Shown in pieces: positions 18,777-55,557 of a stretch of 64,000 bases of DNA (positions within the stretch are counted from its first letter, which is position 1; every line of letters starts with the position of its first letter). The stretch lies in contig JAEYQM010000086.1 of assembly GCA_023410025.1 (NCBI GenBank), positions 966 to 64,965 of the forward strand, in the 5' to 3' direction. Source of the stretch: Bacillota bacterium. Lineage in GTDB: Bacteria > Bacillota_I > Bacilli_A > ML615J-28 > CAG-698. The notes beneath the pieces were generated by a model. It ran no database searches. It had not been told where the DNA came from and worked only from the letters and a program-made list of their open reading frames with translations. Position numbers and translations under genes: made by a program.

Positions 18777-19370
18777 ATGGGTGAAATAAACAATGAATCT
18801 TTATTAGAGATTGCAGTTAATTTGATGAAATCAAAGAAAAAACCTAAATCATTAAAAGAAATAACTAATGAAGTGTTCCAAGTAAAAGGTAATGAATCTT
18901 TAGATGATATCGCGGAACAAAAGGCGCAATTTCAAGTAGATTTTATGGTTAGTGGATTTTTTGTTTGCTGTGGCGAAAACACAAAAGGGCAAACATTATG
19001 GGATTTAAAATCACGTCAACCTTCAACACTAAATGATAAAGATGGAAACTATGATGATTTATATGCTGATGACGAAGATGTAATCAAAAACGAACTAAAA
19101 GAAGATATTTTCGAAGTCCCTGGATTTAAAGAATCTGTTAATTTGATTGATGATGACATTGAAGAAGATGATTTAGAACATGATGAAATCGAAGAAGAAT
19201 TGAATCTTGTTGATGATGCTGACGAAGAAATTGAACCAGATATCGAAATAGATGTTGATGCTGAAGAAGAAGATGAAATCACAGAAAAATTAGCATCGGA
19301 ATTATTATTAGATGATGAAGAAGATACTGAAGAAGAATTAGATGATATTGAAGAAGCATTAAAAAAATAA
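18777..19370 (+). CDS. rpoE: DNA-directed RNA polymerase subunit delta
   Basis: N-terminal HARE-HTH-like domain (LLEIAVNLMKSKKKPKSLKEI...) and long acidic D/E-rich C-terminal tail. Directly upstream of pyrG as in Bacillus. Start at ATG 18777 after GGAGG. Confidence 0.85.
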   Translation: MGEINNESLLEIAVNLMKSKKKPKSLKEITNEVFQVKGNESLDDIAEQKAQFQVDFMVSGFFVCCGENTKGQTLWDLKSRQPSTLNDKDGNYDDLYADDEDVIKNELKEDIFEVPGFKESVNLIDDDIEEDDLEHDEIEEELNLVDDADEEIEPDIEIDVDAEEEDEITEKLASELLLDDEEDTEEELDDIEEALKK

Positions 19371-19388
19371 GCAATAGCTTATTTTTTT
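19365..19388 (+). terminator. Intrinsic terminator after rpoE
   Basis: AAATAAGC-AATA-GCTTATTT stem-loop followed by TTTTT. Confidence 0.6.
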
Positions 19389-19747: not shown

Positions 19748-19819
19748 TTGATAAATATAAAATAAATGCTATAATAAACAAGAGCCCAAAAAGTTCTCTT
19801 TAAAAAGAGAACTTTTTTT
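19748..19819 (+). promoter_or_regulatory. pyrG promoter (TTGATA-16-TGcTATAAT) plus leader terminator/attenuator hairpin
   Basis: -35 at 19748-19753, extended -10 at 19767-19775. Perfect 11-bp stem AAAGTTCTCTT/AAGAGAACTTT (19790-19815) with a 4-nt loop and T-run, ending 3 nt before the RBS AGGAG. Confidence 0.55.
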
Positions 19820-28185: not shown

Positions 28186-28716
28186 ATGAAAGCTACAGGT
28201 GTTGTGAGACGAATTGATGATTTAGGTCGAATTGTAATTCCAAAGGAAATACGAAGAAGTCTAAGAATTAGAGAAGGAGACTCACTTGAAATATATTCAG
28301 AAGGAAATGATTCAATAGTTTTAAAAAAGTACTCGCCTGTCCAATCAATTGAGAATTTCGCAATCCAATTTGCTGAAGCAATTTACGCAACTTCTAAAAG
28401 GGAAGTTATTATTACTGATAATGAAAAAGTAATTGCATGTGCAGGTGGATTTAGAAAAGACATTATTGGTAAGAAAATTGATATCAGGTTAGATGAAAAA
28501 GTTCAAAAAAGAACATTACAGATATTTAACAAAAATGACAATGTAGAGATAACTGACAATTTAATAATTAAATCTGCTGTTGTTTTAAAACCAATTTCAG
28601 TGTATGGCGATCTAATTGGTTGTGTTATTGTCATTGGTGATAATCAAATTACGGACGTAGAAAAAGCATTAGTGGAATCCTCCGCTACCTTCTTATCCAA
28701 ATATTTAGAATCATAA
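28186..28716 (+). CDS. spoVT: Stage V sporulation protein T (AbrB-N plus GAF-like)
   Basis: N-terminal AbrB/MazE swapped-hairpin motif MKATGVVRRIDDLGRIVIPKEIRRSLRI. 176 aa. Position immediately after mfd reproduces B. subtilis pth-mfd-spoVT synteny. Confidence 0.85.
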   Translation: MKATGVVRRIDDLGRIVIPKEIRRSLRIREGDSLEIYSEGNDSIVLKKYSPVQSIENFAIQFAEAIYATSKREVIITDNEKVIACAGGFRKDIIGKKIDIRLDEKVQKRTLQIFNKNDNVEITDNLIIKSAVVLKPISVYGDLIGCVIVIGDNQITDVEKALVESSATFLSKYLES

Positions 28717-28738
28717 GTTAAATACTTATGATTTTTTT
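28712..28738 (+). terminator. Intrinsic terminator after spoVT
   Basis: CATAAGT-TAAAT-ACTTATG followed by ATTTTTTT. Confidence 0.6.
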
Positions 28739-30857: not shown

Positions 30858-30890
30858 AAAAAGACTCAGTTTTGAGTCTTTTTAATTTTT
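30858..30890 (+). terminator. Intrinsic terminator after fba
   Basis: AAAGACTCA-GTTT-TGAGTCTTT followed by a T-run. Confidence 0.7.
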
Positions 30891-37000: not shown

Positions 37001-37501
37001 ATGGAAAAAAGAATATTATTAGGTGGCGGATGCTTTTGGGGTGTTGAGGAATATTTCAAAAGATTAAATGGTGTTATTAATACATCTGTAGGGTATGCCA
37101 ATGGAAATTTTAAAAACCCTACATATGAAGATTTAAAAAAGCATATAGCAACGCATGCTGAAGCATGTGAAATTATATATGATGATGAAGTAATAAGTCT
37201 TGAAAAATTACTTGAACATATGTTTAGATTTATTGATCCCTTTGCAGTAAATAAACAAGGTGGAGATGTTGGTATTCAATATCGTACGGGAGTATATTAT
37301 AAAACATTAGAAGATAAAGAAGTCATTTTATCATTTATGCATAAAAAAGAAAAATATTATAATAGAAAATTAGCAGTAGAAGTTGAAGAAGAAAGGGAAT
37401 ATTATTTGGCAGAAGAATATCATCAAGATTATTTAACAAAAAATCCATATGGATATTGTCATGTAAATATGAATTTAATAAAAGAAGATGAAAAAAAATA
37501 A
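37001..37501 (+). CDS. msrA: Peptide methionine sulfoxide reductase MsrA
   Basis: GGGCFWGVE active-site motif. 166 aa. Confidence 0.93.
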   Translation: MEKRILLGGGCFWGVEEYFKRLNGVINTSVGYANGNFKNPTYEDLKKHIATHAEACEIIYDDEVISLEKLLEHMFRFIDPFAVNKQGGDVGIQYRTGVYYKTLEDKEVILSFMHKKEKYYNRKLAVEVEEEREYYLAEEYHQDYLTKNPYGYCHVNMNLIKEDEKK

Positions 37502-37524
37502 CAGATTGAATCTGTTATTTTTTT
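37501..37524. terminator. Bidirectional terminator
   Basis: ACAGAT-TGA-ATCTGT hairpin followed by a T-run. Abuts convergent msrA and LRR gene stops. Confidence 0.5.
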
Positions 37525-38581: not shown

Positions 38582-38639
38582 GTTTTAACCTCGCACATAG
38601 ACAATTATATCATAAAGTTAATAGATTACAATAATAATT

Positions 38640-39077
38640 TTAATTACCAATTGCAAACATAATTTGGCATTCACATACAATTGTTTCATCGACTTTTGCA
38701 ATGCAATCACATATACCAATTTTCCCCTTTATGTTTAATAGATTTGTATAAAGATAAAGGGTATCTCCAGGAATCACTTTTTTTCTGAATTTTGCCTTTT
38801 TAATACCTGCAAAGTACACCATTTTACCTTTGTTATTTTCACAAGATAAAATTGATACGGCACCAACTTGTGCTAAAGATTCAATAATTAAAACTCCAGG
38901 CATTATATGTTCAGAAGGAAAATGCCCCATAAAGAAATAATCATTGACAGAAACATTTTTTAAACCAACAGCACTCCTGCCAGGAGATAAATTAATTATT
39001 TTATCAACAAGTAAGAATGGATAGCGATGGGGTATAATTTCCTGAATTTGATTACTGTTTAATATCATTTTATTCAC
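38640..39077 (-). CDS. fabZ: 3-hydroxyacyl-ACP dehydratase FabZ
   Basis: EIIPHRYPFLLVDKI and HFPxxPxxPG hot-dog fold motifs. Confidence 0.93.
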   Translation of the reverse strand: MNKMILNSNQIQEIIPHRYPFLLVDKIINLSPGRSAVGLKNVSVNDYFFMGHFPSEHIMPGVLIIESLAQVGAVSILSCENNKGKMVYFAGIKKAKFRKKVIPGDTLYLYTNLLNIKGKIGICDCIAKVDETIVCECQIMFAIGN

Positions 39078-40305
39078 CTTGATATTTTTTAAAAATTAAT
39101 ACGGCGTTTTGTCCACCAAATCCATAGTTATTGCTCATAGCGTAATCTACATTACGATTTACACTAATGTCCTTTGTATAGTTTAGGTCACAATCTGGAT
39201 CATCATTTCTTAAATTAATAGTCGGTGGAATAATACTTTCATTAATAGCTTTTACACAAATAATTGATTCAATAGCCCCAATAGCCCCAAGTGCATGTCC
39301 AGTCATTGATTTTGTTCCACTTAAATTAATGTTGTAAGCATGTTCGCCAAATACTTGTTTAATTGCATATGTCTCAATTTTATCATTGTAATATGTCGAT
39401 GTAGCGTGAGGATTAATATAATCAATTTTATCAGGTGATATGTTAGCATCTTCTAGAGCTAATTGCATACATTTAATAATTGCTTCTGCAGTTTCATCAG
39501 GAGTAGTAATATGATATGCATCACAAGTTGAAGCATAACCAACTAATTCAGCATATATATGGGCATTTCTTTTTTTAGCGTGTTCTAACTCTTCTAAAAT
39601 TAATATTCCGCTGCCTTCAGCCATAACAAATCCATTTCTTTCTTTATCAAATGGAATTGAAGCATTATTTGGATTATCAGAAATACTGATAGCACGCATA
39701 GAAGTAAATCCACCAACACTTAAAGCATTTATAGAAGATTCACTTCCACCAGCAAATGCAATATCAACATATCCATCTCTTATATATCTAAAGGCTTCAC
39801 CAATTGCATTTGTTCCAGCACTACATGCCGTAACAACGGGAATTGATGGACCCTTAGCTTTGTACTTAATAGCGATATTTCCACCAACAAGGTTAACAAT
39901 TGAATTAGTAACAAAGAATGGTGAAACTCTATCAGTTGATTTATCAATTGTTTTTAATGCTTCATCATAAATGGTATTAATTCCACCAATACCACTAGTT
40001 ACAAATGTGCCCATTCGATAACTATCATAATCTTTTAGTTTACTATCATTAAATGCTTGTGTTGCAGCAATTAACGATAGTAACATTACTCTATCTAATC
40101 TTTTATATTCTTTTGGATCTAAGTATAATGAAGGATCTAAATTTTTTACTTCACCAGCAAGTTTAACTTTGTTCTTTGATGTATCAAATTGGGTAATAAA
40201 ATCAATTCCATTTTTACCATTTATTAGTGATTCCCACATTGAATTAACATCATTACCAACAGAAGTAACTGCTCCCATTCCTGTAATAACAACTCGTCTT
40301 TTCAT
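39070..40305 (-). CDS. fabF: 3-oxoacyl-ACP synthase II
   Basis: 411 aa. Active-site ACSAG (Cys), HATST and GHALGAIG His motifs. Confidence 0.93.
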   Translation of the reverse strand: MKRRVVITGMGAVTSVGNDVNSMWESLINGKNGIDFITQFDTSKNKVKLAGEVKNLDPSLYLDPKEYKRLDRVMLLSLIAATQAFNDSKLKDYDSYRMGTFVTSGIGGINTIYDEALKTIDKSTDRVSPFFVTNSIVNLVGGNIAIKYKAKGPSIPVVTACSAGTNAIGEAFRYIRDGYVDIAFAGGSESSINALSVGGFTSMRAISISDNPNNASIPFDKERNGFVMAEGSGILILEELEHAKKRNAHIYAELVGYASTCDAYHITTPDETAEAIIKCMQLALEDANISPDKIDYINPHATSTYYNDKIETYAIKQVFGEHAYNINLSGTKSMTGHALGAIGAIESIICVKAINESIIPPTINLRNDDPDCDLNYTKDISVNRNVDYAMSNNYGFGGQNAVLIFKKYQGE

Positions 40306-40316
40306 ATAAACCCCTA

Positions 40317-41060
40317 TTACATTACCATTCCGCCGTCAACATTAAAAGTTTGACCAGTAATATAATCTGATAATGAACTAGCAAGGAATAAAACTAAATT
40401 AGCAACATCTTCAGGTTCCCCTAATTTTTGAAGTGGAATATTTGCTAAGGCAGCCTCAACTAAGTTTTCATCTAATCCATTTGTCATTTTTGTTTTAATA
40501 AAACCAGGACATACAACATTACATGTTACATTTCTTTTTGCAAGTTCCTTAGCAAGTGATTTAGATAAACCTATAATACCTGCTTTAGATGCTGCATAAT
40601 TAGATTGTCCAGCATTCCCTACTAAACCAACTACAGAAGATATGTTAATAATCTTACCTGAACGTTGTTTTGTCATATATTTTGAAGCATGTTTTGAACA
40701 GTTCCAAGTACCTTTTAAATTCGTATTTATAACACTATCAAATTCTTCTTCACTCATTCTCATAATTAAATTGTCTTTAGTAACACCGGCATTGTTTACT
40801 AATATATCAACTTTACCATATTTAGTAAATGCAAAGTCAATTAATTTTTGAGATTCTTCAAATTTTGATATATTTGCTTGAATATATTCACATTTTTGAC
40901 CCTTTGAAGTTATTTCTTCACATAAAGCCATTGCATCATTTTGACTTGAATTATAATTAACAATAACAACAGCTCCAGCTTCAGCTAATTTTAAAGAAAT
41001 AGCTTTTCCAATTCCTGTTGCTCCCCCAGTTATTATTGCAACCTTATTTACTAGATTCAT
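40317..41060 (-). CDS. fabG: 3-oxoacyl-ACP reductase
   Basis: Short-chain dehydrogenase/reductase: TGGATGIGKA, NNAG, YAASKAG. Confidence 0.93.
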   Translation of the reverse strand: MNLVNKVAIITGGATGIGKAISLKLAEAGAVVIVNYNSSQNDAMALCEEITSKGQKCEYIQANISKFEESQKLIDFAFTKYGKVDILVNNAGVTKDNLIMRMSEEEFDSVINTNLKGTWNCSKHASKYMTKQRSGKIINISSVVGLVGNAGQSNYAASKAGIIGLSKSLAKELAKRNVTCNVVCPGFIKTKMTNGLDENLVEAALANIPLQKLGEPEDVANLVLFLASSLSDYITGQTFNVDGGMVM

Positions 41061-41061
41061 T

Positions 41062-41979
41062 TTATTCCTCCATATGTAATTTAGAAAAATCAGTTAATTT
41101 ATCTAAATTAATTAATTTAATTTCTGAATTAACTTTTTTAATTAAATTAGTTAATACAGTTCCTGGACCAATTTCAATAACACAATCTAATTTGTACTCA
41201 TTTACTAGTTTATAAATGATATGTTCAAATAAAACAGGATGTGTAATTTGATCCCTCATTGCCTCTTTTATGGTTTTAATATCTAATAACTCGCTATTTA
41301 CATTTAATAAAACATCAACTTTGTTTTGTTTTGGTTCAATATTTTGTAAATATGCATAAACTTCTTCACTCGCATTTTTCATAAATTTAGTATGGAAAGC
41401 ACCACTTACATTAAGTGGAAGAATGCGTCTTGCTCCATTTGCTTTTAAAATTTCCATACCAATTAATACAGACTCAACTTTTCCAGAAATTACAACTTGA
41501 TTAATTGTATTATAGTTTGCAACATATAAATCTTCAATAGAAGAACAAATATGACTAACAACATCCTTATCTAGTCCTAAAACAGCAGCCATCATTCCTG
41601 GTACTTTTTGACTATCATCTTGCATAGCACGACTACGAATATTAATTAAACTAATTATTTCATCAAAATTAAATACTCCACTAGCATATAATGCTCCATA
41701 TTCCCCTAATGAAAAACCAGCCATAACAGAAGGATTAATGTCATAAAACTTTTTTAAAACTTCATATATAGCAATTTCAGTAAGAAGCATTGATGGTTGT
41801 GTATAAATTGTTTGATTTAATAAATCATTTTCTTCAAAACATATCTTGGCTATATCATAACCTAAGATATCACTAGCCCTATTATATAGATCTCTAATAA
41901 AACTATATTCAGTATAGAGATCATATCCCATTTTTAAATATTGACTTCCTTGACCGGAAAAAACAAATCCATATTTCAT
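41062..41979 (-). CDS. fabD: Malonyl-CoA:ACP transacylase
   Basis: GQGSQ and GFSLGEY active-site motifs. Confidence 0.93.
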   Translation of the reverse strand: MKYGFVFSGQGSQYLKMGYDLYTEYSFIRDLYNRASDILGYDIAKICFEENDLLNQTIYTQPSMLLTEIAIYEVLKKFYDINPSVMAGFSLGEYGALYASGVFNFDEIISLINIRSRAMQDDSQKVPGMMAAVLGLDKDVVSHICSSIEDLYVANYNTINQVVISGKVESVLIGMEILKANGARRILPLNVSGAFHTKFMKNASEEVYAYLQNIEPKQNKVDVLLNVNSELLDIKTIKEAMRDQITHPVLFEHIIYKLVNEYKLDCVIEIGPGTVLTNLIKKVNSEIKLINLDKLTDFSKLHMEE

Positions 41980-41983
41980 ATTA

Positions 41984-42916
41984 TCACATTATAGAAATTT
42001 TGTTTTTGATTTCATCAATATTATTGAATAAATCAAAAATAATTTCTTCGACCGTTTTTATTTCTTTTATCATTCCTGCAACTTGTCCTGCCATTAAAGA
42101 GCCGTTTACAGTATCTCCTTCAACAACAGCTTTTCTTAATGAACCTAAAGTCATCTTTTCAAGTTCCTCAAGAGTCGCGCCTTCATCGCTTAGACGAATA
42201 TATTCTTTTGCCATTTGATTTTTTAGTACTCGAACTGGAGCACCCGTTTTTCTTCCGGTAACAATAGTATCCGTATCTTTTGCTTCAAGTATTTTTTGTT
42301 TGTAATTTTCATGAATTGGGCATTCTTTACTCGCAAGCATAATTGTTCCAACTTGAACTCCCTTAGCACCTAAGGCAAAACAAGCAATGACCTGTCTTAC
42401 ATCAGCAATACCACCGGCGGCAATAACTGGAATACTTACAGCATCAACTACTTGAGGAACCAATGCCATAGTAGTAAGTTCACCTATATGTCCACCCGAT
42501 TCAGTTCCTTCAACAATAACGGCATCAGCTCCATATTTTTCAACACGTTTTGCAAGAGCAACGCTTGGAACAACAGGAATAACTTTTATACCTGCTTCTT
42601 TAAATCTTTCCATATATGGTATAGGGTTTCCCGCTCCAGTAGTGACAACTGGAACCTTTTCCTCAATAACAACATTAACAATTTCCGAAGCAAATGGACT
42701 AATTAGTAATATATTAACGCCAAAGGGGTTAGATGTTAACTCTTTGGTTTTTCTAATTTCATTCCTAATAAATTCACCATTATTGCCACCTGAAGCAATC
42801 AATCCTAGACCCCCTGCGTTTGATACAGCACTAGCAAGAATATGATTTGCAATATTAGCCATTCCTCCTTGAATTATTGGATATTTAATATTTAAAAGTT
42901 CTGTAATATTTTTCAT
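41984..42916 (-). CDS. fabK: Enoyl-ACP reductase II (FMN, nitronate monooxygenase fold)
   Basis: 310 aa. FabK-type N-terminus (PIIQGGMA...) and conservation throughout. Confidence 0.88.
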   Translation of the reverse strand: MKNITELLNIKYPIIQGGMANIANHILASAVSNAGGLGLIASGGNNGEFIRNEIRKTKELTSNPFGVNILLISPFASEIVNVVIEEKVPVVTTGAGNPIPYMERFKEAGIKVIPVVPSVALAKRVEKYGADAVIVEGTESGGHIGELTTMALVPQVVDAVSIPVIAAGGIADVRQVIACFALGAKGVQVGTIMLASKECPIHENYKQKILEAKDTDTIVTGRKTGAPVRVLKNQMAKEYIRLSDEGATLEELEKMTLGSLRKAVVEGDTVNGSLMAGQVAGMIKEIKTVEEIIFDLFNNIDEIKNKISIM

Positions 42917-42972
42917 TTATTCTCCTTTTAGAGTAAAAGTGGAGGAGACAACCTCCAACTACCTTAATATAA

Positions 42973-43503
42973 TTATTCATCCTCATCATCAATTAATTCA
43001 CCATCAATTTGTAACGCTTCATCATCACTAACATCTTCAATTTCTAAACCTTCATAAAAATTAGTCTCAATTAATTTATTTAGTTCCTCCATAACTTCTG
43101 ATAAATGAAGCATTCTTTCGGTATCAAATTTTCTAATTAAATTTGCAACTAATGTAAAGTAAAACTTACTATAATGTTTTACAATTTTTATACTTTTCTT
43201 TGTAAGATATACTATAATAACTCTTCTATCTTGTTTATGTCTAGTTCTAATGACATATCCCTTTTTCACAAGGCTATTAACAGAAATTGATAATGTACCT
43301 TTTGTAACTTTTAATTGACTAGCAATATCTGACATTGACTTAGTATTTGAGGTTCCAATAATATACAAAACTTTTACTTCATTAGGTGTAACATCGATAA
43401 TATCATAATGTTTTAAATATTCACGTTCAAAAAATTGTAGTTTTGATTGGAACTCAAAAAATGATTCACCGATATTATTTATATAATTATCAATATTCTT
43501 CAT
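42973..43503 (-). CDS. fabT: MarR-family fatty-acid biosynthesis repressor FabT-like
   Basis: Winged-helix region DVTPNEVKVL...KGYVIRTRHKQDRRVIIVYLT resembles streptococcal FabT. Embedded in acc/fab operon. Acidic C-terminal tail. Confidence 0.65.
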   Translation of the reverse strand: MKNIDNYINNIGESFFEFQSKLQFFEREYLKHYDIIDVTPNEVKVLYIIGTSNTKSMSDIASQLKVTKGTLSISVNSLVKKGYVIRTRHKQDRRVIIVYLTKKSIKIVKHYSKFYFTLVANLIRKFDTERMLHLSEVMEELNKLIETNFYEGLEIEDVSDDEALQIDGELIDDEDE

Positions 43504-44299
43504 ATGTTCCAGTCCTTCTATATTTCATATAGCGCTTTTTAATTAATTCTTTTTTATCTATTTTTTTTAATTCATTAATAGTAGTAACTAATTTTTCTTT
43601 AATAATAGAAAAAGAAAAATTAGGGTTTAAATGAAGTCCTCCCTCAACCTCAGGAATTATCATATCAATAATACCAAAACTATATAAATCCTCTGATGTA
43701 AGTTTCATAACAACTGAAGCTTCTTTTGCTCTTGAGGCATCTTTATATAGAATAGAAGCAAAGCCTTCAGGAGATAGAATTGAGTATATTGAGTTTTCAA
43801 ACATCCAAATTTGGTCACTTACACCAATTCCTAAGGCACCACCACTACCACCTTCTCCAAGAACAATTGATATTATTGGTACTTCAAGACCAACCATCTC
43901 TTTTAAGTTATTAGCAATTGCATTAGCTTGTCCTCTTTGTTCAGCACCAACTCCTGGATATGCTCCCGGAGTATCAATAATAGATATGATTGGACGATTA
44001 AATTTTTCTGCTTGTTTCATAATTCTTAGAGCTTTACGATATCCTTCAGGATTAGACATTCCAAAATTATGATATATCTTTTCTTCCGTTGTTGTTCCTT
44101 TTTGTTGGGCAATTATTGTAACAGGAATATTATTTAAAAGTCCAATTCCACAAATTATACTTTTATCATCACCAGATAAACGATCACCTTGTAGCTCAAT
44201 AAAATCAGTAAATAAGAAGTTAATTAATTTTAAAGCATTTGGACGTCTTATATGACGTGCAAGTAGAACTTTATTGAAAACTTGATCAACGTTATTCAT
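43490..44299 (-). CDS. accA: Acetyl-CoA carboxylase carboxyltransferase alpha
   Basis: 269 aa. ClpP/crotonase-like carboxyltransferase motifs (GAYPGVGAEQRGQ). Confidence 0.92.
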   Translation of the reverse strand: MNNVDQVFNKVLLARHIRRPNALKLINFLFTDFIELQGDRLSGDDKSIICGIGLLNNIPVTIIAQQKGTTTEEKIYHNFGMSNPEGYRKALRIMKQAEKFNRPIISIIDTPGAYPGVGAEQRGQANAIANNLKEMVGLEVPIISIVLGEGGSGGALGIGVSDQIWMFENSIYSILSPEGFASILYKDASRAKEASVVMKLTSEDLYSFGIIDMIIPEVEGGLHLNPNFSFSIIKEKLVTTINELKKIDKKELIKKRYMKYRRTGTYEEY

Positions 44300-45171
44300 T
44301 ATTTATCCTCCGAGTGAAGTTTAATTAATCTAGATAATATATCTTTTATTTCATGTCTAGAAACCACCATATCAACAAAACCATGTTGTAACTGGAATTG
44401 TTCAGTTTGGAATCCTTCTGGAAGATCTTGATTAATTGTTTGTTTGATTACCCTTTGACCAGCAAAGCCAATTAAGGAATCTTTTTCAGCAATTATTATA
44501 TCTCCTAAAGAGGCATAACTTGCAAGAACTCCACCAGTTGTAGGATTTGTTAGAATACTAATAAATAATAGTTTTTCCATGTCATGTAGTTTGATAGCGG
44601 CACTTGTTTTAGCCATTTGCATTAGTGAATAAATACCTTCTTGCATTCTAGCACCACCCGATGCTGAAAAGATAATTAAGGGAAGTCGATGTTCAATTGA
44701 ATATTCAATTAATTTAGTTACTTTTTCACCAACAACTGTTCCCATACTTCCCATCATAAAGAAACTATCTAATACACCAATTGCAACTTTTTGTTTATTA
44801 ATTAATCCTGTTCCACAAATAAAAGCTTCAAATTCATTTGTCATTTGTTGGTATTTTTGAATCTTTTCATCATAATCAGGAAAATTAAGTGGATTGTTTG
44901 CTTTAATATTTGCAAATAATTCACAAAAACTATTATTATCTAAAGTTATAGTAAGTCTTTTTATTGCATTAATTTTAAAATGATATGAACACTTAGGACA
45001 TACATCAAGATTTTTTTCTAAGTCTTCGTTAAAGATAAGTTCATTACAATTTTCACACTTTATAAAAAGCCCTATTGGAATATCTTTTTTAGTAACTTCA
45101 GTTGTTTTATTGCGGAAGAGTTTTTTAAAGTACTCGACTCTTTCCTTCCTATCATCGATGAAGTTGCTCAT
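44299..45171 (-). CDS. accD: Acetyl-CoA carboxylase carboxyltransferase beta
   Basis: N-terminal zinc ribbon CENCNELIF...CPKCSYH followed by carboxyltransferase domain. Confidence 0.92.
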   Translation of the reverse strand: MSNFIDDRKERVEYFKKLFRNKTTEVTKKDIPIGLFIKCENCNELIFNEDLEKNLDVCPKCSYHFKINAIKRLTITLDNNSFCELFANIKANNPLNFPDYDEKIQKYQQMTNEFEAFICGTGLINKQKVAIGVLDSFFMMGSMGTVVGEKVTKLIEYSIEHRLPLIIFSASGGARMQEGIYSLMQMAKTSAAIKLHDMEKLLFISILTNPTTGGVLASYASLGDIIIAEKDSLIGFAGQRVIKQTINQDLPEGFQTEQFQLQHGFVDMVVSRHEIKDILSRLIKLHSEDK

Positions 45172-46528
45172 ATTTATTTGCCCTCACTATTTCAAAAAAA
45201 CTATTTACAAAATTTGTATCATATAATCCACGAACAAAATTTGTATTAAACATAATTAGATATAAAAATTCAACATTTGTTATTATTCCATCTATCATAA
45301 ATTCTTCTAATGCTACACGCATTTTTCTAATTGCTTCACGTCTAGTGGGAGCATAAACAATTAATTTTGCAAGCATTGAATCATAATATGGAGATACTGT
45401 GTAGTTTCCATATATATGAGTATCAATTCTAACTCCAGGTCCACCAGGGAAAATAACATTGTTTATTAATCCAGGTGATGGTCTAAAAAAATTATCTGGA
45501 TCTTCAGCATTTATCCTACATTCAATGGCATGACCTTTAATTGTTATATCTTCTTGCTTGAAACTAAGAGGGTTTTTGAAAGCAATTTTAATTTGCTCTT
45601 TAACAATATCAATGCCTGTAACCATTTCTGTCACGGGATGTTCTACTTGAATACGAGTATTTACTTCAATAAAGAAGTAATTGTTGTTTTTATCAACAAT
45701 AAACTCTACTGTTCCTGCACTACGATAGTTACTAATTTTAGCAATTCTAATTGCTGCCTCACCTAGTTCTTTTCTTAATTCATTTGATATAAAAGGTGAT
45801 GGTGATTCTTCAATCATTTTTTGATTTCTTCTTTGAATTGAACAATCTCTTTCCCCAAAATGAACAATATTACCAAAATTATCGGCAAGAAATTGAATCT
45901 CAATATGTCTAGGATTTTCAATATATTTTTCTATATATACAGAGTCATCACTAAAATTAACTAAAGCTTCTTGCTTTGTTTGAAAGAACAAGTGTCTTAG
46001 TTCTTCAGAATTATTAATAATACTAATTCCTTTTCCACCACCACCAGATACAGCTTTAATTAATATAGGGTAACCGATTTGTTCAGATACCTTAATAGCT
46101 TCTTCAATACTTTCAACCGTTCCATTAGATCCAGCAACTACCGGAACATTTGCTTTTTTTGCAATTTCTTTTGCAGTTGCTTTATTACCTAATAATTTAA
46201 TTGTTTGACTAGTTGGTCCAATAAAATTTATATTACACTTTTCAACAATACTAACAAATTTATCATTTTCAGATAAAAAACCATAACCAGGATGAATAGC
46301 ATCAGCACCAGTTGCAATAGCAGCACTAATAATATTAGTAATATTTAGGTAACTATCTGAACTTTTTTCTCCACCAATACAAATTGATTCATCCGCAAGC
46401 TTTACATGTAAACTATTTATATCTGCTTTTGAATAAACAGCTACAGTTGAAATTCCCAATTCTTTACAGGCCCTAATAATACGAATGGCAATTTCTCCAC
46501 GATTGGCAATTAATACTTTGTTTGACAT
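45152..46528 (-). CDS. accC: Biotin carboxylase
   Basis: 458 aa. ATP-grasp, MSNKVLIANRGEIAIRIIRA, GGGGKG. Confidence 0.95.
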   Translation of the reverse strand: MSNKVLIANRGEIAIRIIRACKELGISTVAVYSKADINSLHVKLADESICIGGEKSSDSYLNITNIISAAIATGADAIHPGYGFLSENDKFVSIVEKCNINFIGPTSQTIKLLGNKATAKEIAKKANVPVVAGSNGTVESIEEAIKVSEQIGYPILIKAVSGGGGKGISIINNSEELRHLFFQTKQEALVNFSDDSVYIEKYIENPRHIEIQFLADNFGNIVHFGERDCSIQRRNQKMIEESPSPFISNELRKELGEAAIRIAKISNYRSAGTVEFIVDKNNNYFFIEVNTRIQVEHPVTEMVTGIDIVKEQIKIAFKNPLSFKQEDITIKGHAIECRINAEDPDNFFRPSPGLINNVIFPGGPGVRIDTHIYGNYTVSPYYDSMLAKLIVYAPTRREAIRKMRVALEEFMIDGIITNVEFLYLIMFNTNFVRGLYDTNFVNSFFEIVRANKYEQLHR

Positions 46529-46945
46529 TTATTCAATTACCATCAAAACTTGATCAAAGCCTACTGCTTCACCATTTGCTACTTTAATTTCAGTAACTAC
46601 ACCATCGATAGGAGAAGTAATCTCATTCATAATTTTCATTGCTTCAATGATGCAAAGTGTTTGTTTTGCAGATACTTTGTCTCCCACTTTTACAAATGGT
46701 GGTTGATTAGGGCCACTAGCAGTATAGAATGTTCCTACAATTGGGCTTTTTAAACAGAATTTGTTTTTTTCACAATCTTCATCATGTTTTTGATTGTTTT
46801 GTAATTCAACATACTCTTTTTTCAAAATGGTTGGGTTTGTTAATTTACTAAGCCTGATATGAAAACCTTCGTTAGTTAATTCAAGTTCAGTTAAGTTTGA
46901 TTTCTCAAAATTTTTAATAATAGTTTGTACTTCTTTTAGATTCAT
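46529..46945 (-). CDS. accB: Biotin carboxyl carrier protein
   Basis: Biotinylation motif EAMKIMNEI. 138 aa. RBS AGGAGGG. Confidence 0.93.
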   Translation of the reverse strand: MNLKEVQTIIKNFEKSNLTELELTNEGFHIRLSKLTNPTILKKEYVELQNNQKHDEDCEKNKFCLKSPIVGTFYTASGPNQPPFVKVGDKVSAKQTLCIIEAMKIMNEITSPIDGVVTEIKVANGEAVGFDQVLMVIE

Positions 46946-46962
46946 GTTCCCTCCTATAAAAA

Positions 46963-47014
46963 AATGACGATTATATCGTCATTAAATTTCGTTTGTAAAG
47001 TGACGACATCACTT
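46963..47014 (-). promoter_or_regulatory. acc-fab operon promoter (TTTACA-18-TATAAT) with two TGACGA-containing palindromes
   Basis: On the minus strand, -35 TTTACA (46994-46999) and -10 TATAAT (46970-46975). The -10 is the exact centre of the perfect 9-3-9 palindrome AATGACGAT-ATA-ATCGTCATT (46963-46983). A second palindrome AAGTGA-TGTCG-TCACTT (46998-47014) abuts the -35. Confidence 0.55.
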
Positions 47015-47079
47015 AGTAAAAAGATTGTATAAGTAATTTTGTATTAATTAAAATCGGTATTAAAAATATTATAAAAAAT

Positions 47080-47931
47080 TTAGTAATTAATATATCCAAC
47101 ACCAATAACCGATAAACCTAAGTGAGCTACTACAGTTGCTGGAATATTAAAAACTTCTATTTTTATATTAGGTAATTTATCTTTTATTATCTCTAATACA
47201 AATTCTAAATCTTTAGTATTATCAGTATATGATACATGTACCACACCAGTATTTACATTAACTTTCCCAACTAACATATCAACAATTTTAATTAAAGCCT
47301 TTTTATAAGTTCTAACTGTTTCAGTTGAAATAAGTTTTCCATCCCTACTAAATTCAATTACAGGTTTGATTTTTAAGATATTTGCAACTAATCCTTTCGC
47401 ATTTGATAGTCTCCCATTTTTAATTAGATATGTAAGATTATCAACTGTTAAAAAATATTGCCAGTTCTGCTTTATAAAATCAATGTGCTTTAAGATATCT
47501 GCAACTGTTCCACCATTATTAGAAATTCTAGCAGCATCTAATACCATACTAGTTAGAATAGAAACAGTAGTTAAGGTATCAACAATTTCAATATTTATAT
47601 CATCTATCATCTCTTTTGCAATCATTGCATTTTGATATGTTCCACTTAATTCTTTAGAAATACATAGGAACACAATATCAGTATAACCAAGATCTTTGAT
47701 CATTTCAAAGGTAGTAAGTACTTCCCCCATTGATGGTTGAGAAGTTTTTGGTACATCTACCGAACTTTTAAGCGCATTATAAAATTGTTCATTACCAAAT
47801 TTTTCAAAATCAGTATATACATCACTACCTAAAAAACATGGAAGATTTATCATAAAAATATTGTTATATTCATGTTTTATATTATATATTGATGATGAAC
47901 TGTCTGTAAGAATCGCAATTTTTGTCTTCAT
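47080..47931 (-). CDS. DegV-family fatty-acid-binding protein (FakB-like), second paralog
   Basis: DegV signature (KIAILTDSSSS). Start at ATG 47931 after AGAGAGGA. Directly upstream of the acc operon promoter, same strand. Confidence 0.8.
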   Translation of the reverse strand: MKTKIAILTDSSSSIYNIKHEYNNIFMINLPCFLGSDVYTDFEKFGNEQFYNALKSSVDVPKTSQPSMGEVLTTFEMIKDLGYTDIVFLCISKELSGTYQNAMIAKEMIDDINIEIVDTLTTVSILTSMVLDAARISNNGGTVADILKHIDFIKQNWQYFLTVDNLTYLIKNGRLSNAKGLVANILKIKPVIEFSRDGKLISTETVRTYKKALIKIVDMLVGKVNVNTGVVHVSYTDNTKDLEFVLEIIKDKLPNIKIEVFNIPATVVAHLGLSVIGVGYINY

Positions 47932-47950: not shown

Positions 47951-47983
47951 AATTTGAAATACAAATAATTTGAATTTCAAATT
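47951..47983. promoter_or_regulatory. Tandem FabT-box-like palindromes
   Basis: AATTTGA-ATT-TCAAATT (47967-47983) matches the streptococcal FabT palindrome ANTTTGA-N3-TCAAATT. An adjacent imperfect copy AATTTGA-AAT-ACAAATA lies at 47951-47967. Both are embedded in a perfect 16-bp inverted repeat AAAATTAATTTGAAAT (47945-47960 / 47974-47989). Confidence 0.55.
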
Positions 47984-48852: not shown

Positions 48853-49295
48853 AAAAATATTTACTGGCTATAGCAACCTTTATGTGGATTGCCTTTATTT
48901 TTATGAATTCATTACAAACAGGTGTAGAATCTGGTGAAGTAAGTTCAAAGATAACAGAAGTTGTAATTAAAGTATTAAATTTAATTAATATTAATTTAGA
49001 TTTTAACACAACAGCAATTTTTATTAGAAAGTGTGCTCATGTATTCGAATATTTTATTTTAGGAATACTATTTGCATTGACATATATTAATATGATAGGT
49101 AATCTAAATTACCGAATTATATATACTTTTTTATCAGCATTAGTTGTTAGTATATCAGATGAAATCATTCAACTATATGTACCAGGAAGAGTTGGTGCAG
49201 TAACTGATGTATTAATTGATACAATCGGGATAGTTTTAGGAATTATTATAATATTACTAATTATAAAAATTAGAAAAAAGAGAACAGAAGTTTAA
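48849..49295 (+). CDS. VanZ-like family membrane protein
   Basis: 148 aa. VanZ motif region RKCAHVFEYFILGILF. 4 transmembrane helices. Overlaps the upstream stop (translational coupling). Confidence 0.7.
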   Translation: MKKYLLAIATFMWIAFIFMNSLQTGVESGEVSSKITEVVIKVLNLININLDFNTTAIFIRKCAHVFEYFILGILFALTYINMIGNLNYRIIYTFLSALVVSISDEIIQLYVPGRVGAVTDVLIDTIGIVLGIIIILLIIKIRKKRTEV

Positions 49296-49320
49296 CTACT
49301 TGGATAACAAGTAGTTTTTT
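49294..49320 (+). terminator. Intrinsic terminator after VanZ-like gene
   Basis: AACTACTTG-GATAA-CAAGTAGTT followed by TTTTTT. Confidence 0.7.
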
Positions 49321-55305: not shown

Positions 55306-55480
55306 TATATTTGAAGTAGGACAAATTCTTGAACTTAAAAAAGAACATCCATGTGGATCAAAACAATGGAAAGTTGTTAAGACAGGAATAGATTATAAAT
55401 TAGAATGTGTAGGTTGTAATCGTGTTGTTATAGTTCCAAGAGTTGAACTAAAGAAAAAAGTAAAGAAAGTTATTCAATAA
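55295..55480 (+). CDS. DUF951-family small protein (YyzM-like)
   Basis: 61 aa. CxxC...CxxC arrangement (HPCGS...CVGCN). Family typical of the origin-proximal parAB neighbourhood in Firmicutes. Confidence 0.55.
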   Translation: MNANIFEVGQILELKKEHPCGSKQWKVVKTGIDYKLECVGCNRVVIVPRVELKKKVKKVIQ

Positions 55481-55557
55481 AATCCACAAATGTGGATTTT
55501 TTTTAAATTTACAAATATATTATGGTATAATCATTAGTATGGTTAAGGAGATTATGA

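Follow-up and report, generated by a model that had tools for sequence, protein, structure and literature searches.

A probable Rho-independent terminator-type hairpin from the acpP-accB junction precedes accB in the acc-fab operon of an uncultured bacterial lineage

Introduction

Transcription attenuators of the classical kind, with 1:2, 2:3 and 3:4 pairings, are the trp-type leaders. An intra-operon attenuator is formed in Escherichia coli by a partial terminator that separates rplL from rpoB. For genes of fatty acid synthesis, the sites published for the repressor FabT were, to our knowledge, described as single palindromes. The published FabT palindrome is ANTTTGACTGTNAAATT (PMC8406281), and FabT binds fab promoters in Enterococcus faecalis (PMC9083066).

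The locus compared with these systems here is the spacer between fakB and accB on a stretch of 64,000 nucleotides (the window; G+C content 27.8%). A preliminary description had found a palindrome in this spacer, named P1 below, and had proposed it as the operator of an additional regulator of the acc-fab operon or as a divergent second type of FabT site.

Materials and methods

The relatives used for comparison were Mollicutes-like Bacilli MAGs. In all, 177 loci (numbered with the prefix L) were fetched, and 24 distinct junctions were compared. A metagenome scan gained few close relatives; exact-protein look-ups yielded more. For L172 and L173, the junction lies outside the fetched loci. Hairpins were scored by MFE folding of the sequence before each T-run. 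Coordinates given without a locus number are those of the window.

Results and discussion

Genomic context

The genes flanking the spacer and the operon downstream of it are the following:

47080..47931, minus strand: fakB/DegV fatty-acid-binding protein gene (ATG at 47931), upstream of the hairpin
46529..46945, minus strand: accB, encoding the biotin carboxyl carrier protein
38640-46945, minus strand: accBCDA-marR-fabK-fabD-fabG-fabF-fabZ, of which accB is the first gene

The spacer between fakB and accB measures 134 nt. The gene order fakB-(acpP)-accBCDA-marR-(fabH)-fabKDGFZ is kept in the relatives, and neither acpP nor fabH was found within the 64-kb window. As in the window, absence of acpP from the junction coincides with absence of fabH in L005, L006, L008, L168 and L170. 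The presence of acpP between fakB and accB likewise goes with the presence of fabH between marR and fabK, when L001-L003, L007, L010, L015, L081, L164, L166 and L171 are compared with L005, L006, L008 and L168-L170. Either the two genes were moved, as in L009 and L172, or FASII runs without its usual initiation enzyme.

At the other end of the operon, a gene for the biotin transporter BioY follows fabZ in L164 (11782-12291), L166 (11793-12320) and L168 (10874-11404). In the window (38582-38640), fabZ is directly followed by an LRR/Flg_new surface-protein gene with no bioY between them. Across the whole window, a single Rfam family attained its gathering score, a T-box leader (RF00230; 5091-5287, plus strand; 136.7 bits, full length).

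Anatomy of the fakB-accB spacer

Read on the minus strand, the fakB-accB region is ...CTAAGTGATGTCGTCACTTTACAAACGAAATTTAATGACGATATAATCGTCATTTTTTTATAGGAGGGAACATG. Before the start codon of accB (ATG at 46945), it contains these elements:

46983-46963, minus strand: P1, a perfect 9-3-9 inverted repeat, AATGACGAT-ATA-ATCGTCATT
46963..46983, minus strand: the RNA form of P1, AAUGACGAU-AUA-AUCGUCAUU, folded as a 9-bp stem with a 3-nt loop and a dG of -8.2 kcal/mol
46956..46962, minus strand: T-run (UUUUUAU) directly 3' of the P1 stem, evident from the sequence and from the terminator-scan tail TTTTTATAGG
46955-46949, minus strand: accB ribosome binding site (RBS), AGGAGGG

The perfect palindrome centred on TATAAT, on which the preliminary description was built, is present: the hexamer (46975-46970) takes in the entire 3-nt loop together with the adjoining bases of the stem, one from the 5' arm and two from the 3' arm. 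Key to the interpretation is a feature absent from that description, namely the T-run beside P1 on the coding strand, where seven consecutive T's (46964-46958) start with the last two stem positions and extend beyond the 3' arm.

A perfect inverted repeat with arms of ≥ 9 bp was reached by 1.9% of the shuffles of the 134-nt spacer, and the core TGACGA-N(3-11)-TCGTCA occurs once in the window versus 0 times in 100 shuffles. Folding of the whole 141-nt region was no better than that of shuffles (z = -0.6) and showed only two local hairpins. In the Rfam scan at gathering scores, no family and no riboswitch was found at the junction; a leader peptide is likewise absent there.

P1 and the intrinsic terminators of the window

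The terminator scan called P1 on the minus strand with nine pairs, three of them G-C, a loop of 3 nt and the tail listed above. It was the sole hairpin called in the 1.7-kb region, once per strand (2 calls vs. 0.3 expected). Judged against what is usual for intrinsic terminators, P1 is a G-C-containing stem-loop on the transcribed strand with a U-run immediately 3' of the stem; it lies downstream of the end of a same-strand gene (fakB in the window, and in the relatives 0-20 nt past the acpP stop codon), and at orthologous sites the hairpin persists in spite of changes in its sequence and loop.

Besides P1, the window has eight intergenic perfect inverted repeats whose arms measure ≥ 9 bp, at 19362, 19790, 21459, 28709, 30858, 37496, 49294 and 55479. 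All eight precede T-runs, seven of them lie at the 3' end of a called ORF, and their stems are similarly short and A+T-rich; P1 is built alike.

As to their form, the repeats at 19362-19387, 19790-19815, 28709-28733, 30858-30883, 37496-37520, 49294-49316 and 55479-55500 are perfect 9-11-bp hairpins with T-runs, which, by their sequence, are typical intrinsic terminators of the source genome. The hairpin at 55479-55500 is the only one listed that lies away from the 3' end of a called ORF, and those at 37496-37520 and 49294-49316 are situated between convergent genes and look bidirectional.

We consider it likely that P1 is a Rho-independent terminator-type RNA hairpin derived from the acpP-accB junction, probably acting as a partial intra-operon attenuator. 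Several points speak against a terminator. The stem, with three G-C pairs and -8.2 kcal/mol, is weak, the loop is as short as 3 nt, and the 141-nt region as a whole folds like its shuffles. Neither arm varies between the window, L001, L161 and L166, although these lineages are fairly diverged and their flanks and loop differ, which hints at some constraint on the sequence itself. Furthermore, P1 lies 97 nt from the fakB stop codon, versus -8 to +59 nt for the other terminators of the window. This distance is explained by a relic of acpP lying in between (see below), which also implies that the hairpin may be a mere leftover.

The same position in relatives

A hairpin with a dG of -8 or lower abutting a T-run was found at 12 of the 24 distinct junctions, compared to 0.9% of shuffles. 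This count is conservative, since the MFE method misses the hairpin of L002, in which the T-run is interrupted (TTTAATTTTT). The hairpin usually stands right behind acpP. By lineage, the junctions are as follows:

Window: no acpP at the junction; AATGACGAT-ATA-ATCGTCATT followed by the T-run
L001, L161: acpP present, its stop codon TAA inside the 5' arm; AATGACGAT-ATC-ATCGTCATT followed by T6-7, the loop now giving TATCAT
L166: acpP present; arms as in the window, 13-nt loop
L164: acpP present; AAATGACA-ATC-TGTCATTT, arms shortened
L081, L083: acpP present; GAGACGAAT(A)…(T)ATTCGTCTT, long loops
L168, L170: no acpP; AAGACGAAT… and AAAGACGAAT…, respectively, long loops
L002, L003, L010, L087: acpP present; (A)AAGCGATA…TATCGCTT(T), then a FabT box
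L012, L014: acpP present; AAACAGTT…AACTGTTT, then a FabT box
L005-L008, L015, L171: acpP varies; no hairpin, and the stop codon upstream adjoins the accB RBS

What is conserved is structure, not sequence. The arms differ between junctions (AATGACGAT, AAATGACA, GAGACGAAT, AAAGCGATAA, AAACAGTT), and the folded loops range from 3 to ~13 nt. A T-run stands next to the hairpin in every relative having one, and the distance from the 3' end of the hairpin to the accB ATG is 17-29 nt, or 47-55 nt with a FabT box in between. The hexamer TATAAT occurs in the loop in the window's species only. Covariation of the arms cannot separate an operator from an RNA hairpin, because both remain symmetric. The stems of L081, L168 and L014 include G·U pairs; these make sense only in an RNA with the coding-strand sequence and would be mismatches in duplex DNA. 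Three features favour a terminator-type hairpin over a dimeric operator: loops vary freely in length, G·U pairs occur, and a T-run always stands on one side.

These comparisons also bear on the proposal that P1, together with the second palindrome P2 described below, is an operator that occludes the accB promoter and is bound either by a further repressor or, as another type of site, by the FabT-like MarR regulator. In addition to the perfect palindrome centred on a good -10 hexamer, such a reading can call on the identity of the arms in the window, L001, L161 and L166 despite differing flanks, and on the loop of L166, which is longer by 10 nt, i.e., about one helical turn. Nevertheless, neither half-sites nor spacing are conserved at orthologous promoters: the loops between the half-sites measure 3, 3, 13 and more nt, and the arms of L164 are shortened. 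The constant feature is an asymmetric T-run, which a dimeric operator would not need, and the overlap with a core promoter exists only in the window's species (L001 and L161 have TATCAT and no -35).

Moreover, further copies at other regulated genes were absent from the 64 kb and from the 177 loci (~1.9 Mb by a rough estimate). In the latter, TGACGA-N3-17-TCGTCA was found only at this junction, namely in the window's species, L001/L089, L161 and L166/L167. A search of the window for degenerate copies (≤ 3 mismatches, or a shorter core with one mismatch) returned only P1. Two of the checks that the preliminary description had named for the operator, further copies (looked for in the window and the 177 loci) and conservation among relatives, turned out against it: the P1 sequence is restricted to the closest relatives, and elsewhere a different hairpin with a T-run, or none, is seen.

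P2 and a relic of acpP

Directly upstream of P1, two further elements overlap:

47014-46998, minus strand: P2, a near-palindrome of 17 bp, AAGTGATGTCGTCACTT
46984..47030, minus strand: acpP 3'-end relic of 47 nt, frame-disrupted, which holds P2

P2 (AAGTGA-TGTCG-TCACTT) is a perfect 6-5-6 palindrome or an 8-1-8 palindrome with one mismatch, shares TGACG with P1 and is able to form a 7-bp RNA hairpin. The preliminary description had placed this second palindrome over the -35 hexamer. The palindrome exists (46998-47014), but its overlap with the -35 amounts to 2 nt, so that "over" was an overstatement.

With the hairpin as anchor, the 47 nt of the relic, directly upstream of P1, were aligned with the final 50 nt of the L161 and L001 acpP genes. 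The alignment scored 11 with three small indels, compared to -1.5 ± 3.3 for shuffles, of which 3-4 in 2000 reached this value. Without the anchor, a local alignment of the window spacer with the whole fakB-accB interval of L161 fell short of significance (149 of 1000 shuffles). In acpP, the counterpart of P2 is the run of codons for ...R-D-I-V-T-F.... From the anchored alignment, the relic appears to be the remainder of an acpP deleted in the window's lineage. The closest relatives L001, L161, L164 and L166 carry an intact acpP of 74-75 codons at the position of the relic.

The TCGTCA common to P2 and P1 is accounted for in two ways: the relatives use ATC-GTC codons at this place, and the 5' arm of the terminator complements those codons in several lineages. 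The TCGTCA of P2 can go back to the codon usage of an ancestor. The G/C changes in P2 relative to acpP of L161 had been considered as a sign of selection for another TCGTCA site, but this is unneeded, as L166, L081 and L083 use ATC-GTC. For an operator, the shared TGACG would be a further argument; its offset from the centre, however, differs between P1 and P2 (by 3 bp per side, read from the sequence), and P2 is a relic of coding sequence.

Complementarity of the terminator 5' arm to the acpP D-I-V codons ~25-35 nt upstream was observed in L161 (2470-2530), L166 (2420-2500), L081, L083, L002 and L168, and in the window at 46973-47009. It is a possible antiterminator or a possible trace of the origin of the hairpin.

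FabT-type boxes and the fakB promoter

The regulator gene of the operon and the sites resembling FabT operators are located as follows:

42973..43503, minus strand: FabT-like MarR-family regulator of 176 aa (PF01047)
47981-47969: FabT-type box, perfect, TTTGAAATTCAAA
47965-47953: FabT-type box with one mismatch, TTTGTATTTCAAA
47985..48014, minus strand: TTGACA-N18-TAAAAT, preceded at its -10 by a TG extension; among promoter matches of the region, the best in the scan

The best NCBIfam model for the MarR protein was NF050133 (FabT), at 86 bits and hence below the equivalog cutoff of 200 bits, and its best PDB match was FabT of Streptococcus pneumoniae (6JBX, E = 9e-14). Homologues were found in MAGs of uncultured Bacilli, Haloplasmataceae and Acholeplasmatales. 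The promoter match is likely the principal promoter of the fakB-acc-fab unit. Both boxes (47953-47981) are situated directly downstream of it, 16 bp apart from start to start, over the predicted transcription start of fakB and ~1 kb upstream of P1.

The motif TTTGAAnTTCAAA is conserved: two or three boxes with an exact 16-bp period precede fakB in ~20 related loci. In one group of relatives, an extra box lies between acpP and accB; the window, L001, L161, L164, L166 and L081 have boxes only before fakB. In the window's operon, FabT-type boxes stand nowhere but before fakB; for the FabT-like repressor to control the fab genes and itself, transcription therefore has to pass P1. This need for read-through from the fakB promoter favours a leaky terminator, i.e., an attenuator.

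Tested for the FabT box (6-1-6, TTTGAc-N-gTCAAA), P1 does not match; the matching sites are those at 47953-47981. The preliminary description was correct in stating that P1 is not a FabT box. Its suggestion of a second type of FabT site does not hold, as the FabT-like MarR has a different and strongly conserved box, TTTGAAnTTCAAA, upstream of fakB; the existence of a conserved box at another place for the FabT-like protein, the operon's sole regulator, also argues against P1 as an operator in general.

Tandem TTTGAAnTTCAAA boxes just downstream of the fakB -10 were seen, among others, in L001 (3378-3406), L166 (1290-1334), L015 (3218-3262) and L087 (1209-1253). Judged by sequence, a tandem array at 1.5 helical turns before the gene of a fatty-acid-kinase binding protein may be a distinct operator architecture. 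Many relatives, the window not included, furthermore carry a one-mismatch copy of the regulator's own box within marR, where the F-E-F-Q codons near the N-terminus read TTTGAATTTCAAT/G (L001 8046, L003 8025, L007 8046, L161 6046, L164 6049, L173 1218). This copy could have arisen by chance from codon usage, or it could serve autoregulation from within the gene.

A candidate internal promoter of accB

The reading that competes most seriously with a terminator takes P1 mainly as DNA. It concerns this element:

46970..46999, minus strand: candidate sigma-70-type promoter TTTACA-N18-TATAAT, 11/12 matches

According to this reading, P1 supplies the -10 of a functional accB promoter which arose after the loss of acpP; its palindromy would be an inherited by-product and its terminator activity little. 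We hold this to be a genuine possibility, although we lean against it. It is compatible with P1 being a terminator, and both functions may coexist.

The promoter sequence reported in the preliminary description is present, and it is statistically unusual. The TTTACA (46999-46994) is separated from TATAAT by 18 nt, and both hexamers and their spacing (16-18 nt) are of the sigma-70 type. A match of ≥ 11/12 was reached in 0.9% of the shuffles of the 134-nt spacer, and 12 such sites occur per 128 kb of strand. Given this 0.9% chance level, the DNA of P1 may act as a promoter instead of a terminator. Promoter-like sites before accB were confined to the window, L168/L169, L170 and L009, all of them lineages whose junction has no acpP; an internal promoter may hence date from after the loss of this gene. 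In L170, TGcTATAAT directly precedes the hairpin, and a single loop change from ATC to ATA converts TATCAT to TATAAT. On the other side, the 18-nt spacer is suboptimal, a TG extension is absent, and the closest relatives (L001, L161, L164 and L166) do not share the site. Furthermore, a promoter here would be without a FabT-type box, so that acc-fab and the regulator gene would escape the conserved FabT-like control.

An internal accB promoter using the TATAAT of the loop is possible. Its transcripts would be expected to start ~7 nt past the -10, near 46963. This is the end of the 3' arm and beyond the stem; such transcripts would thus be without the hairpin.

The locus L168 (2353-2551; identical in L169), which has no acpP at the junction, contains a promoter-like site of its own, TTTGCA-N18-TAAAAT with a TG extension (by eye also readable as TTGCAT-N17), and a FabT-type box right past the fakB stop codon. 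They are followed by a leader of ~140 nt ending in the hairpin with its T-run. By eye only, the loop of this hairpin (CTTATGATG) exactly complements the 9 nt before the accB Shine-Dalgarno sequence (CATCATAAG).

A switchable attenuator

Another explanation extends the terminator to a switch. The acpP "D-I-V-T" codons, or their relic, would pair either with the 5' arm of the terminator or with their own partner in P2, and translation of acpP or a factor would set the read-through into acc-fab. Indeed, once the 3' arm of P1 is made unavailable, its 5' arm forms a duplex with the P2 3' half; the energy of -10.9 kcal/mol was reached by none of 500 shuffles. In 7 of 14 lineages, pairing with the upstream segment is better than in shuffles (p < 0.05), and the acpP stop codon is within the 5' arm in L001 and L161. 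The same pairing is absent in the other 7 lineages (L164, L170, L010, L087, L003, L012 and L014), however, and the acpP codons GAT-ATC-GT are nearly palindromic, so that the complementarity may be a by-product or due to common origin. There is also no leader peptide and no known riboswitch (Rfam gave nothing), and the relic is untranslated in the window. Such a switch is unlikely in our view.

If it were true, a second, RNA-level layer above FabT-type repression would exist at the acpP-accB junction of these Mollicutes-related Bacilli. In that case, the conserved acpP D-I-V codons would serve as the antiterminator strand, and translation of acpP (in the window, the P2 hairpin of the relic) would set the amount of transcription into the genes for acetyl-CoA carboxylase and the fab genes.

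The least probable explanation is the operator: with conservation, copy number and the origin of P2 all against it, we regard P1 and P2 as sites of an additional regulator as very unlikely.

Proposed mechanism and implications

In the preferred reading, that of a terminator-type hairpin, P1 would have been inherited from the acpP-accB junction, where it follows the acpP stop codon in most relatives. Deletion of acpP in the window's lineage would have left its last ~47 nt, including P2, and the hairpin. RNA polymerase starting from the FabT-controlled fakB promoter would transcribe fakB (and acpP in the relatives). Part of this transcription, we infer, probably stops at the hairpin and its U-run, and the remainder would read through into accB. 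Such a partial stop would result in higher expression of the upstream gene or genes than of acc-fab, as expected for an intra-operon attenuator. In addition, a new internal promoter, with its -10 arisen by chance in the loop, may fire and add accB transcripts which start past the stem and escape termination.

With this, a candidate for an extra regulator of fatty acid synthesis is removed, and beyond correct annotation P1 is of little significance: it appears to be of the ordinary intrinsic terminator or intra-operon attenuator type, now seen in an uncultured lineage, with no conserved operator. The annotation that follows places the main promoter and the repressor sites upstream of fakB, the unit being fakB-(acpP)-accBCDA-marR-fab. 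For a palindrome with a one-sided T-run, a terminator should be considered first and an operator only afterwards. More noteworthy are two by-products of the analysis, i.e., the tandem FabT-type boxes with their 16-bp period and the joint absence of acpP and fabH in several lineages.

Comparison with known systems

The trp-type attenuators fit the layout of the spacer in so far as a P2 hairpin, an alternative pairing of the P2 3' half with the P1 5' arm, and the putative P1 terminator can be drawn in the same arrangement. They differ in that the spacer has no leader peptide, the pairing is found in half of the relatives, and segment 2 is acpP coding sequence or its relic.

With the FabT operator of Streptococcus pneumoniae and Enterococcus (PMC8406281, PMC9083066), the box TTTGAAATTCAAA of the window shares the 6-1-6 arrangement TTTGA…TCAAA, and the operon of the window encodes a FabT-like MarR, as in FabT systems. 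P1 (AATGACGAT-N3-ATCGTCATT), in contrast, shares neither half-site nor spacing with that operator, and the boxes of the window are unlike those of FabT systems in being tandem at a 16-bp period and in preceding fakB rather than fabT or fabK.

The closest likeness is to intrinsic terminators and intra-operon attenuators. P1 is a G-C-containing stem-loop with a U-run at once behind it on the sense strand, its structure is retained while its sequence drifts, and the hairpin follows a gene whose product is expected in larger amounts (acpP in the relatives) and precedes genes of the same unit. It departs from typical intrinsic terminators in its short, A+U-rich stem, its 3-nt loop and the -10-like hexamer in that loop, and from other intra-operon attenuators in that the gene originally preceding the putative P1 terminator was lost in the window.
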